A stretch of DNA of 64,000 bases, taken from Candidatus Nomurabacteria bacterium. GTDB lineage: Bacteria > Patescibacteriota > Minisyncoccia > Phycocordibacterales > UBA9973. This document shows positions 34,266 to 35,530 of this stretch, piece after piece (position 1 is the first letter of the stretch; every line of letters starts with the position of its first letter). A program made the position numbers and the translations under genes. The notes below the pieces were generated by a model. It worked only from the letters and a program-made list of their open reading frames with translations. It ran no database searches and was not told where the DNA came from. The stretch is taken from contig JAPLXO010000011.1 of the NCBI GenBank assembly GCA_026396065.1, positions 74,748 to 138,747 of the forward strand, given 5' to 3'.

Positions 34266-35432
34266 TTAAGCGATTTTATTTTGCCTAAACTCCCTAAATC
34301 CCCTTGTCTGCCTTACAAGCAGGTTCCAATTTGCACTACTTAGCTTCTCCAAAGACGGGAATCTATGTATATCGTAATCCTTTCTTATCTTTCGTAAATG
34401 CAACTTAATCGCCTTGTCATAGGTAAAGCTTTTATCAAGAAGTAATTTTGCACCTTTAACGATTTCTGGAATCTTCTTTTCAATAAGACCATCAGCAACA
34501 CAAGCCACTCTTTTACCCTCTCTCAAGAGCTTGTCACATTCTTTAGTTCTATCATCACGAGATGGATATGAATTACATTTAGGAAGAACCGAGTAAAACG
34601 GCACATCATTTACGAAATACAATGGCCAACGACAGGTAGCAATTTCTAACCATGGCGTATCAACAATAAAAGCAAGAAATGCAAAACCAGTATGCGGTGA
34701 AAGAAATATATCGCATTTTTTTATCAACGCTATCTGATTCCATAGACCAATATTGTATGCAGATTCTGCGTTTTTAAGATGCTTAATCAAATATTCTATG
34801 TCATCCAAAGTAAAATCTTTTGTGAAAGTTCTTTGGTGATCATTTTTGGTAATACCAGTAAAGTAAATTTTAAGATTTGGTATTGCTTGTTCTAAAGCTA
34901 AACAAATTTTAAGCCACATTTCGACAGAAGGACTTTGCCTTAATCCTTTAGCACCTCCAAGCATGATAGTAATTGTATGACCACGATGCTTAAACTTCTT
35001 TGCAAATGTTTTTGCTTTTATTGGAATAGGAAGGATAATTTTTGGATTGCGCACGAAAGGCAGAATGCTGTCGTCCTTGGCAACAAATATTTTCTGTAAT
35101 ACTTCTTGAGTTTTTACTAACTCTACCCTGTCGTTTCCTTTTACTAGTCGACCTGCTCGATTATCGTTATTAATATAATCCCAATTTTTTGGAATCTTTT
35201 GGAGACATTTTGCCTTTTCGCCGTCCTTGAAAACATCATCAGTTGAAATAGAATATGTTTTCTTAATCCATGGGCATGCGTCTGCGAGCTCTGTCGGCGT
35301 ATCAGCATTGAGTAACAAATACACATCAAGATTTTTGTTAGCGAGCGAATAGCCCTTGGCAAGTTTTAGGGCTTCAACTGCATGTCCAACGGGCGGATAA
35401 TATACCCAGTTAATGAGTAGTTTTTTCTTCAT
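34266..35432 (-). CDS. glycosyltransferase family 9-like (heptosyltransferase-like) protein
   Basis: MKKKLLINWVYYPPVGHAVEALKLAKGY... and ...TIMLGGAKGLRQSPSVEMWLKICLALEQAIPNLKIYFTG resemble GT9; start placed at the internal Met because the 28 upstream codons translate a flanking repeat. Confidence 0.5.
   Translation of the reverse strand: MKKKLLINWVYYPPVGHAVEALKLAKGYSLANKNLDVYLLLNADTPTELADACPWIKKTYSISTDDVFKDGEKAKCLQKIPKNWDYINNDNRAGRLVKGNDRVELVKTQEVLQKIFVAKDDSILPFVRNPKIILPIPIKAKTFAKKFKHRGHTITIMLGGAKGLRQSPSVEMWLKICLALEQAIPNLKIYFTGITKNDHQRTFTKDFTLDDIEYLIKHLKNAESAYNIGLWNQIALIKKCDIFLSPHTGFAFLAFIVDTPWLEIATCRWPLYFVNDVPFYSVLPKCNSYPSRDDRTKECDKLLREGKRVACVADGLIEKKIPEIVKGAKLLLDKSFTYDKAIKLHLRKIRKDYDIHRFPSLEKLSSANWNLLVRQTRGFREFRQNKIA
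34299..34343. repeat. direct repeat copy 1 flanking the GT9-like gene
   Basis: ccccttgtctgccttacaagCAGGTTCCAATTTGCACTACTTAG (24 nt perfect, ~45 nt imperfect). Confidence 0.5.
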
Positions 35433-35485
35433 AAGGCAATTATACCAAATTATGCGCATTTCTCTTAGTTGTAAAATTGTGAAAA

Positions 35486-35530
35486 CCCCCTTACCTGCCA
35501 TACAATCAGGTTCCAATTTGCACTACTTAG
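35486..35530. repeat. direct repeat copy 2 flanking the GT9-like gene
   Basis: ccccttacctgccatacaatCAGGTTCCAATTTGCACTACTTAG. Confidence 0.5.

Follow-up and report, generated by a model that had tools for sequence, protein, structure and literature searches.

The glycosyltransferase gene and its flanking repeats

The window, by which we mean the whole 64-kb stretch analysed here, carries a tRNA-Glu gene followed on its 3' side by a gene for a 210-aa protein, a glycosyltransferase (GT) gene on the opposite strand, and a direct repeat with one copy at either end of the GT (Table 1). The GT ORF as called (34266-35516, minus strand) reads through both copies. Since the aligned homologues all begin at MKKKLL (13 of 13), the 28-codon N-terminal extension of the window ORF is spurious, and the downstream start suspected in the initial annotation is borne out. 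At the other end, all aligned homologues terminate in ...FPSFGGxxxxK, about 10 residues past an RFP motif, whereas the window ORF departs from them exactly where the repeat starts and then runs on for about 29 further codons. The last ~8 codons of the GT and its stop are missing, and the frame continues to 34266 by way of copy A. An overlap of one repeat copy with the 3' coding end of the gene had been described; the ORF does read through copy A, and the tail, predicted to be disordered (pLDDT <50, residues 365-388), is repeat-derived. These findings correct the annotation of the gene at three points: where it starts, the loss of its stop, and a chimeric tail. Upstream, every GT homologue retains the extended -10 box, whether the repeat is present or not, and the position of this box so close to the ATG suggests, as read from the sequence, a leaderless or near-leaderless mRNA.

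Table 1. Features of the tRNA-Glu-linked region of the window
Feature	Position	Strand	Remarks	Basis
tRNA-Glu(CTC)	33337..33409	+	array anchor	ARAGORN, Rfam
Promoter-like module TTGACT-17-TATACT (with TG)	33412..33440	+	2 nt past tRNA core, heads cassette 1	promoter scan
Cassette 1 cargo, 210-aa protein	33552..34184	+	without Pfam or NCBIfam match	
Intrinsic-terminator-like hairpin and T-run	34249..34273	+	3' of cassette 1 gene; within spurious 3' extension of GT ORF	
E copy A	34279..34359 (repeat 34296-34353)	-	end-piece of cassette 1	nhmmer score 56, E-value 4e-16; alignments
GT9-like glycosyltransferase, homology-supported part	34344..35432	-	ATG at 35432	homologue alignment, predicted structure
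Extended -10 box TGGTATAAT	35439..35447	-	6 nt before ATG	read from sequence
E copy B	35467..35545 (repeat 35483-35540)	-	end-piece of GT cassette	nhmmer score 57, E-value 2e-16
Terminator of neighbouring 149-aa gene	35545..35578	-	adjoins core end of copy B; outer array edge	

The direct repeat with 24 identical nucleotides, as first reported, is confirmed: the two copies are 86% identical over 58 nt and share the exact 24-nt stretch CAGGTTCCAATTTGCACTACTTAG (34320-34343 and 35507-35530), which has these two matches only in 64 kb, even with up to 3 mismatches, and none in 100 shuffled sequences. The copies are each other's best match, and the window holds just these two, as would be expected had the 1.19-kb GT segment been tandemly duplicated in this genome alone, or were the similarity due to chance. 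Such a local accident nevertheless has a negligible probability: the chance expectation is zero matches, nothing else is duplicated between or around the copies, and more than 100 related copies occur at about 45 other loci, most of which have no GT.

A family of co-oriented repeats

The repeat belongs to a family, here called E, of about 70 bases that is found in Nomurabacteria/Paceibacteria. A scan of sequence collections with a 37-nt degenerate pattern matched 11 loci in genomes and 33 in metagenomes, all of them CPR, and each was viewed within ±4-10 kb of the match. The genome scan, run with this pattern, gave one E region per genome. A profile search counted 2-10 copies per locus, on a single strand within every locus. 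The initial annotation had allowed that the repeat might be an intergenic motif, of the terminator kind for instance, scattered over unconnected loci; E is common, but its setting is always of one kind, co-oriented arrays beside tRNA-Glu.

Each E comprises a 9-nt core (GTGACCCTA), 8 variable nucleotides and a near-invariant 37-nt block, which in tRNA-Glu orientation read ...AAATCCCCTTATATTCTCnACAATCnGrTTCCAATTT-(8 variable nt)-TAGGGTCAC. The element is unstructured, as judged from eight sequences folded on both strands (MFE -1.3 to -6 kcal/mol; z -1.1 to +1.8 against shuffles), and its variable positions have no codon periodicity. Within one array, E copies are 77.7% identical, as against 74.3% between arrays, an effect too slight for strong within-genome homogenisation. 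Rfam searches gave no match, even at an E-value of ≤1, for E or for a second, structured repeat family of the same region, X; a promoter-like module, Z, is a further small repeat family found there. No published description of E was found in the full-text literature, and the family and its arrays are apparently undescribed so far.

Measured against this layout, copy A in the window retains the 37-nt block intact but lacks the core GTGAC(C/T), the position of which is taken by the truncated 3' end of the GT (GGAGAAG joined to CTAAGTAG); in copy B the core is present as TAGAGTCAC (35528-35536, plus strand). In the window genome, the core of copy A may have been deleted together with the 9-nt spacer and ~25 nt from the end of the GT, which would account for the apparent fusion of the GT frame to E, unless this fusion reflects a homopolymer error in the T-run at 34358-34362.

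Several other identities of E were considered and dropped. A small ORF (MTLSSSNWNxIVxxIRGF...) is open in most copies, but it was rejected because it has no third-codon bias and lies directly behind terminator T-runs. Apparent look-alikes of an anticodon arm and a T-arm do not make E a tRNA fragment, as ARAGORN and Rfam were negative and only a 10-nt end matches tRNA-Glu. An attC-like hairpin or a terminator is ruled out by the lack of structure. Nor is a sigma-54 or sigma-70 promoter inside E supported: the sigma-54 spacing is off by one, neither window copy retains the -10-like TATAAG, and the orientation of E is unrelated to that of the genes. An origin in phages or plasmids was likewise abandoned, the E pattern being absent from 2.9 million viral contigs.

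The sequences between consecutive E copies have the character of single-gene units. Successive E copies bound 57 intervals, with a median spacing of 728 bp; 46 of these contain just one ORF, and the 59 interval ORFs fall into 56 families, none of them a recombinase. Gene strand is random relative to E, with 28 genes on the same strand and 33 on the opposite one.

Position of the arrays relative to tRNA-Glu

The last 9 nt of the window tRNA-Glu, TGGGGTCAC (33401-33409), correspond to the E core TAGGGTCAC. The similarity between the two, TAGGGTCAC(A), is 10 nt long and significant, and the remainder of E is no closer to the tRNA than shuffled sequence. In 11 of the 13 loci with tRNA-Glu in reach, the window included, the arrays follow the tRNA on its 3' side and point the same way; in the exceptions, L008 and L041, E is found on its opposite side or runs the opposite way. 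The promoter-like module that follows the tRNA core in the window is of a type that recurs, at equal distance behind E, in 10 other arrays, as revealed by clustering of post-core sequences.

Cassettes and their junctions

A unit made up of E, promoter and GT was found in the window and in three other loci (L001, L007 and L008), each time in a different neighbourhood. In L007 and L001, the far boundary of this unit is marked by the stop codon, 9 nt and GTGA(C/G)C, beyond which follows an E in L007 and an X-like element in L001. Copy B, together with the GT gene and the promoter of that gene, forms one cassette, and copy A closes the preceding one. The repeats that were first seen to bracket the GT do mark cassette boundaries, but they are not its own pair; each ends one cassette of an array. 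The window array would be read as two units: promoter, 210-aa gene, terminator and copy A make up the first, and the second consists of the GT gene in reverse orientation, the GT promoter and copy B. The GT is 81% identical to the copy in L003, as against about 70% for the flanking housekeeping genes, and in L003, L009 and L011 GT homologues near tRNA-Glu keep the same promoter without any E.

Breakpoints between related arrays lie at the core, and the arrays differ by whole cassettes. For instance, L033 and L049 are 100% identical over 1277 nt, starting exactly between T and GTGACCC, with unrelated sequence on the other side, and L044 presents a third variant at the same junction. L020 and L054 have flanks that are 93% identical, but the stretch from the tRNA 3' end to a shared E measures 0.4 kb in L020 and 3.8 kb in L054, where it holds 3 cassettes more. 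L027 and L043 have common cassettes in the same order and one extra cassette each. Homologous sequences begin directly past the core whether it is that of tRNA-Glu, of E or of the structured element X; to illustrate, CATCACGTGCTAGCAC stands in this position in L054, L023 and L044. The evidence on mobility is comparative throughout and drawn from fairly distant genomes; the loci compared yielded neither an excision product nor a circular cassette, nor any near-identical strain with an empty site.

These results lead us to propose, with a probability of roughly 0.6, that E arrays are tRNA-Glu-anchored cassette arrays made by site-specific recombination, for which there is a candidate enzyme only. 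In Nomurabacteria/Paceibacteria, the DNA directly 3' of tRNA-Glu would act as a gene-collecting site in which small units follow one another head to tail, each usually with one gene in either orientation, its own promoter, and E last. Every junction would fall directly behind the 9-nt sequence common to E and the tRNA 3' end. Cassettes would move by recombination at this core, with the enzyme supplied in trans, and the 37-nt block would be the putative protein-recognition part of the site.

It is unlikely, in our estimate, that E is mainly a regulatory or architectural site (an operator, a nucleoid-protein site or an insulator) and that the variation is a by-product of homologous recombination between 60-70-bp islands of identity after DNA uptake. 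The 37-nt block, near-invariant, unstructured and containing the partial palindrome GTTCaAATTgGAAC, does resemble a protein-binding site, in four genomes E precedes the GT start by 50-110 nt, and the 24-nt exact stretch of the window pair is near the minimum for RecA-type exchange; arrays without a linked dedicated recombinase also fit. Yet array copies are all co-oriented, following the direction of tRNA-Glu, while the genes have random orientation and distance relative to them. The duplicated regulatory element offered as one option by the initial annotation is disfavoured by this random orientation and by the GT homologues of L003, L009 and L011, which have the same promoter and no E. Modules are moreover swapped between tRNA-Glu and E positions that have only 10 nt in common, and RecA-type exchange needs more than ten shared nucleotides. 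The breakpoint of the 100%-identical pair, finally, is at the core edge, outside the long conserved block.

Still less probable is that E is itself mobile, as a non-autonomous, MITE-like or satellite element inserting beside copies of the tRNA-Glu end sequence, so that the genes in between are merely interrupted island genes. E copies hardly more alike within than between arrays are what a spreading family would give, the GT of L003 and L009 sits in syntenic or similar places without E, and X and Z also occupy the region. However, E lacks terminal inverted repeats and a hairpin, and the core is the only sequence that could pass for a target-site duplication. No orthologous gene pair was found with and without an intervening E; instead, gene-plus-E units are gained and lost together, and E and the GT enter other arrays as a pair, with a constant spacing between E and the promoter.

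Candidate recombinases

If the cassettes move by recombination at the core, the sole candidate enzyme seen is a tRNA-Glu-targeting family of large serine recombinases (LSRs), although a tyrosine recombinase may be equally possible. A 513-aa LSR (Resolvase, Recombinase and Zn ribbon domains) adjoins the tRNA-Glu 3' end in L033, L058, L059 and L060, of which L059 is syntenic with the window. One LSR of the family (P0122) has a 120-aa protein with a resolvase domain encoded next to it. In L033, L058 and L059, the far end of the LSR island, some 7-8 kb away, is the same core, GTGACC(C/T)TA; in L060 this far end was not found. The distal arm of the islands bears no resemblance to E. An LSR attachment site spans 40-50 bp with an imperfect dyad around a central crossover dinucleotide, whereas conservation in E is strongest at 18-54 nt from the core, farther out than a typical LSR half-site. 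LSRs normally leave attL and attR unused afterwards, and are for this reason a poor fit to tandem arrays.

A cognate recombinase was also sought within the window. None was present in the 29 ORFs scanned (those outside the scan belong mostly to the cell-division, dcw, gene cluster), and a tblastn search for the LSR across all 64 kb was negative. Nor does a recombinase recur beside the arrays, where ORF clustering returned housekeeping neighbours (iPGM, NTP-transferase, TrxB, FtsZ and SBP/pilins), and recombinase domains were found in 0 of 52 cargo proteins scanned. The suggestion that the GT is an excisable or exchangeable cassette between att-like sites is upheld as far as the boundary repeats, the variability of the locus in relatives and a recombinase family at the same junction sequence are concerned. 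Excision of the GT here is another matter: as copy A has lost its core, precise removal of the gene from the window genome via the two copies is unlikely, and the copy A junction is, judging from its sequence, probably no longer recombinogenic.

Relation to known systems

Like integron arrays (those of attC sites, including sedentary chromosomal integrons and CALINs), E arrays have short co-oriented sites between mostly single, unrelated and largely unannotated genes. In both, units of 0.5-2 kb consist of cargo and one site each, relatives differ by whole units, and the site family is common to a clade. The sites are of different kinds, however. An attC site is an imperfect palindrome that forms a single-strand hairpin (R''-L''/L'-R'), whereas E is a conserved sequence with no hairpin; the integron boundary lies in the R' box GTTRRRY, whereas that of E lies behind TAGGGTCAC(A), in a consensus without a GTTRRRY/RYYYAAC pair. 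At the array end, integrons have the tyrosine integrase IntI, attI and Pc, where E arrays have tRNA-Glu, and no tyrosine integrase was found in the recurrent neighbours, the cargo or the scanned window ORFs (±4-10 kb per locus). The cargo genes of E arrays, unlike integron cassettes, run in either direction from their own promoters.

Tycheposons of Prochlorococcus are tRNA-targeted islands that grow by tandem accretion (bioRxiv 10.1101/2020.12.28.424599). They share with E arrays the use of the 3' end of an intact tRNA, the outward displacement of older arrivals by newcomers, repeats of the tRNA end across a flexible island, and a streamlined genome with few other mobile elements. Islands of this type involve tyrosine or large serine recombinases. 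Tycheposons are multi-kb elements with their own integrase and replication genes and with ~40-nt partial tRNA flanks, whereas E units are single genes with no mobility gene, a tRNA-derived repeat of 9-10 nt and a conserved part that is a 37-nt non-tRNA block. Insertion at an intact tRNA 3' end, with a direct repeat of that end at the far junction, is seen in E arrays; an integrase belonging to each element is found only in the separate ~7-8-kb LSR islands and not in E-bounded units. The islands of L033, L058 and L059, together with the tRNA-Glu-adjoining LSR of L060, fit the tRNA-targeted class. REP/BIME, MITE, Correia, RUP and MIRU sequences are, like E, short conserved non-coding repeats between genes, but they are palindromic or have inverted ends, are dispersed over the whole genome in either orientation, and are not the borders of exchangeable genes. 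E, by contrast, is unstructured, strictly co-oriented and, as far as seen, tied to one tRNA-linked locus.

A broader claim, which we make tentatively, is that the E arrays of Nomurabacteria/Paceibacteria may constitute a gene-capture system parallel to integrons but of different mechanism, in which single-gene cassettes ending in sequence-defined double-strand sites of ~70 bp would be added one by one at the tRNA-Glu 3' end through the 9-nt core, by a recombinase acting in trans, possibly the LSR of the islands. To our knowledge, CPR/Patescibacteria have tiny genomes with few recognised mobile elements, and we know of no integrons in them; E arrays would bear on the way in which such genomes trade accessory genes. 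If the proposal is right, these minimal genomes maintain a dedicated flexible-gene locus at tRNA-Glu, and E would be a compact, easily searchable marker of the CPR flexible gene pool. It would also stand as a novel type of recombination site, comparable with the attC of integrons and with classical tRNA att sites, and as a possible source of a programmable pair of recombinase and short-core site.

The cargo

The GT9-like label given to the cargo GT in the initial annotation is valid, according to the structural model, at fold level only. Neither the window protein nor its close family has a match in Pfam or NCBIfam (Pfam at an E-value of ≤1, window and 13 close homologues), a PDB sequence search found nothing, and, of 120 distant homologues, 3 are recorded with PF01075 (Glyco_transf_9). 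An AlphaFold model of high confidence (pLDDT 89.5, pTM 0.87) gives structural matches that are all GT9 at ranks 1-9 (3tov, 1psw, 2h1h, 6dfe and 2gt1; E-values 8e-11 to 3e-8), the best including 3tov, WaaF (1psw), WaaC (2h1h) and TibC. The cargo GT is thus predicted to have the same two-domain GT-B fold as the GT9 enzymes, i.e. the ADP-heptose:LPS heptosyltransferases WaaC/WaaF and TibC, although sequence identity is only about 10%. The host is a CPR bacterium, in which, as far as we know, LPS is not expected. Cell-envelope glycosyltransferases, pilins and kinases are among the cargo seen across the arrays, as are an arsenic-resistance operon and many proteins of unknown nature.

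Repeats flanking the glycosyltransferase gene

The direct repeats of about 45 nt that the initial annotation placed around the GT9-like glycosyltransferase gene (GT, minus strand) are real. A repeat search of the window extends them to 58 nt with 86% identity, and the 64-kb window holds just two occurrences of the 24-mer CAGGTTCCAATTTGCACTACTTAG, even at three mismatches, with none in 100 shuffles. The proposed downstream start is borne out by an alignment of 13 GT homologues from Candidatus Nomurabacteria and other CPR bacteria (58-91% identity), all of which begin with MKKKLL. 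All likewise end in FPSFGGxxxxK, whereas in the window ORF the similarity breaks off precisely at the repeat, and ~29 more codons follow; both extensions of the ORF are therefore artefacts of the repeats. A structure model predicts disorder for the extra C-terminal tail. At the 3' junction, TCTTT-GGAG/AAGCTAAGTAG in the window stands against TCTTTTGGAGGG...TAA in relatives; the window lacks the final ~25 nt of GT, its stop codon, the spacer and 6-7 nt at the start of the repeat unit. The GT protein has no match in Pfam, NCBIfam or PDB sequences, and the nine best structural matches of its confident model (pLDDT 89.5) are GT9 heptosyltransferases, such that the label 'GT9-like' holds for the fold only. 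In every GT homologue, an extended -10 box, TGGTATAAT, ends just 6 nt before the ATG, suggesting a leaderless or near-leaderless mRNA.

A repeat family bounding single genes

From this point on, we refer to the conserved repeat of ~70 bases as E, and to its two window copies as A and B. The copy upstream of GT recurs at the GT-homologue loci L001, L007 and L008, each with a different neighbourhood; L007 carries one more flanking pair, and the downstream copy in L008 is truncated. A 37-nt degenerate pattern built from the E copies at GT loci, scanned over 185,579 species genomes, returned 11 genuine loci, all in Paceibacteria/Nomurabacteria-type MAGs and only two with GT nearby. The same pattern gave 33 further loci in metagenomes and none in the viral collection. 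The window repeats are members of a family, not a private pair. By profile HMM, loci carry arrays of 2 to 10 copies, spaced 0.2-2.1 kb and uniform in strand within each locus. The consensus of 71 distinct copies consists of a core, GTGACCCTA, 8 variable nt and the near-invariant AAATTGGAAyCnGATTGTnGAGAATATAAGGGGATTT.

Exactly one ORF (at least 60 aa) lies in 46 of the 57 E-to-E intervals (median spacing 728 bp), and the 59 cargo ORFs represent 56 families. Pfam assignments include kinases (AAA_18/33, zeta-toxin-like), Maf, GATase, HD, NYN and hydrolases and, among others, NUDIX, HAD, a methyltransferase and a pilin, with no recombinase among the 52 cargo proteins scanned. One interval of L058 holds an ArsR-thioredoxin-ArsP operon. 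The E-promoter-GT unit is alike in the window, L001, L007 and L008, and its other edge is the stop codon plus 9 nt plus the core, followed by E in L007 and by an X-like element (see below) in L001. Since unit and core-marked edge recur across loci, GT is one cassette (usually one gene plus E) of the family, in partial agreement with the exchangeable cassette first suggested. GT is 81% similar between the window and L003, as against about 70% for neighbouring housekeeping genes, which is compatible with lateral transfer. No more copies of E, X or the core occur between tRNA-Glu and murF in the window.

A duplicated regulatory element had been the alternative. Gene orientations flanking E show all four combinations at similar frequency, and within arrays 28 cargo genes are co-oriented with E and 33 opposed. 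This randomness disfavours E as a promoter, UTR or terminator and argues for E acting as double-stranded DNA. The GT homologues in L003, L009 and L011 have a TGnTATAAT promoter identical in type, with E absent. Folding of either strand is no better than that of shuffled sequence, which rules out an attC-type hairpin, terminator or structured RNA; Rfam yields no family match, even at E<=1. An open frame passes through E, but its variable positions lack codon periodicity, and a coding role was rejected, as was a REP/MITE-type repeat.

Anchoring at tRNA-Glu and junctions at the core

ARAGORN, run on all loci, places a tRNA-Glu (CTC or TTC) beside E arrays. In 11 of 13 cases, the window included, the array is found on the 3' side of the tRNA, with E co-directional. 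Read in this direction, E ends in TAGGGTCAC(A), the last nucleotides of tRNA-Glu; the shared end covers the 3' strand of the acceptor stem, the discriminator base and one or two further bases, and is the sole significant similarity between the two. In the exceptions, L008 and L041, E has the direction of the tRNA and is found 5' of it, a layout that could result from inversion between one core in direct and another in inverted orientation, the latter supplied by X.

Comparison of related loci places breakpoints at the core. L033 and L049, from two samples, are 100% identical over 1277 nt from exactly T/GTGACCC and unrelated on the other side, and L044 has a third left-hand sequence at this breakpoint. 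L020 and L054 have 93% identical flanks, with 0.4 kb versus 3.8 kb from the tRNA 3' end to the shared E, the longer stretch holding three more E-bounded genes. L027 and L043 have common cassettes in the same order and one unique to each. A 170-aa ORF cassette (L027, L043, L054) and a kinase cassette (L019, L026, L031) recur with differing neighbours; in these comparisons and in L027/L043, homology stops at E. Few kinds of sequence follow the core, starting at an identical nucleotide whether the core belongs to tRNA-Glu, E or X: a TTGACA-17-TAtnaT promoter module (behind the window tRNA and ten E copies), CATCACGTGCTAGCAC... (behind the tRNA in L054, behind E in L023 and L044), a terminator plus X, and a promoter/RBS-like module Z. 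Homology-dependent recombination hardly yields exchange with only 10 shared nt. As tRNA-Glu and E share no more than this, such exchange is as expected from site-specific recombination at the core. Module Z (..TTATTTTATAtAAGTTATTTt..ACCCAAnGGGATAtt), found directly after the core of all three elements, is probably a common promoter/RBS leader of cassette genes.

Like integrons, E arrays have co-oriented sites, diverse single cargo genes and cassette-wise variation; unlike them, the site has no hairpin, the boundary is not GTTRRRY and IntI is not adjacent, so that the arrays fail the defining integron features tested. Tycheposons share the tRNA-linked island accretion, but E units have no integrase and a tRNA-derived repeat of 9-10 nt versus about 40. 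With moderate confidence, we read the arrays as gene accretion that is site-specific, anchored at a tRNA and integron-like in its granularity. No description was found in the literature searched, which is not proof of novelty.

A candidate recombinase

No recombinase was found among 29 ORFs scanned in the window. A large serine recombinase of 513 aa (LSR; Resolvase, Recombinase and Zn ribbon) in L033 overlaps the tRNA-Glu 3' end with its own 3' end; its family numbers 316 at E<=1e-30, with many CPR members. The gene is identically positioned in L058 (Parcubacteria RAAC4_OD1_1), L059 and L060. The far end of the island, ~7-8 kb away, is GTGACC(C/T)TA-ATGATACC..., the same core, in L033, L058 and L059; it was not found in L060. 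L058 has the order tRNA-Glu, LSR island, core, cassette, E, X, ars cassette, E. In L059, which shares synteny with the window at 65-74% identity (murF ... island ... tRNA-Glu ... RmuC ... Obg-GatB-FBA), the LSR island is present and both E and GT are absent. The window locus is thus a demonstrable hot spot whose contents differ in relatives. The LSR is an unproven candidate for moving E cassettes as well: the distal arm of its islands is unlike E, and E has its conserved block at a greater distance from the core than expected of an LSR half-site.

The LSR ORF runs into tRNA-Glu antisense, and its last ~14 codons (..WVTLPGIEPG..) are the tRNA complement, so that integration determines the C-terminus of the protein. 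A resolvase-domain-only ORF of ~120 aa directly precedes the LSR ORF in L033, L058 and L060. The ~8-kb island of L033 contains a LOOT RNA (RF03000, 75 bits).

Element X and further features

X (~190 nt) starts with GTGACCCTAAGC; its end, GTTCCCGGTAGGGTCAC, is identical to the 3'-terminal 15 nt of tRNA-Glu. It follows tRNA-Glu, or E plus a terminator hairpin; none of the copies listed is in the window. Compensatory changes in 14 of 30 predicted pairs mark it as a structured RNA or ssDNA element, the ends of which are predicted to pair into a helix resembling the tRNA acceptor/T-stem. Rfam has no match. Partial X-like copies occur behind other tRNAs, and one behind the GT stop in L001.

In the variable island, between the window array and murF, two adjacent hypothetical proteins without Pfam or NCBIfam match look like paralogues (..INWSGVK..VILMYFF.. 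and ..INWRGIK..LILMYLF..). Upstream of the intact tRNA-Glu, a 5' fragment of this tRNA (GGCCCTATCGTC..TAACGGTTAG..GAC) is split by two GC-rich hairpin repeats and followed by an 86-aa GIY-YIG nuclease ORF, the 3' end of which overlaps the intact tRNA start. The region resembles a homing-endonuclease insertion by which the 5' end of the tRNA was duplicated; L003 has the same arrangement at 75% identity.

Positions of features in the window and at compared loci (L numbers, from other genomes or metagenomes)
Feature	Locus	Position	Strand	Remark
tRNA-Glu 5' fragment to intact tRNA-Glu	window	32994-33409		
GC-rich hairpin repeats	window	33005-33039; 33050-33084		35 nt each
GIY-YIG ORF	window	33098-33358		
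tRNA-Glu	window	33337-33409	+	core 33401-33409
Promoter	window	33412-33440		
210-aa gene	window	33552-34184		
Terminator	window	34249-34273		
E copy A	window	34279-34359		core deleted
Direct repeat	window	34296-34353; 35483-35540		
GT	window	34344-35432	reverse	ATG at 35432
Extended -10 box to ATG	window	35433-35447		
GT promoter	window	35439-35447		
E copy B	window	35467-35545		core TAGAGTCAC at 35528-35536
Terminator of next, outward gene	window	beyond E copy B		
Hypothetical protein	window	36361-37086	-	241 aa
Hypothetical protein	window	37318-38004	-	228 aa
X	L013	7648-7861		
X	L022	7689-7888		
X	L026	743-932		
X	L027	436-628		
X	L031	4069-4271		
X	L033	1329-1522; 4115-4326		
X	L049	7286-7498; 8232-8443		
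X	L058	3263-3461		
Module Z	L027	3950-4030		after core
Module Z	L033	~3330-3410		after core
Module Z	L039, L042, L043, L046, L020			after core
LSR ORF	L033	10759-12300		
LSR ORF	L058, L059, L060	10001-11548		
LOOT RNA	L033	9352-9480	-
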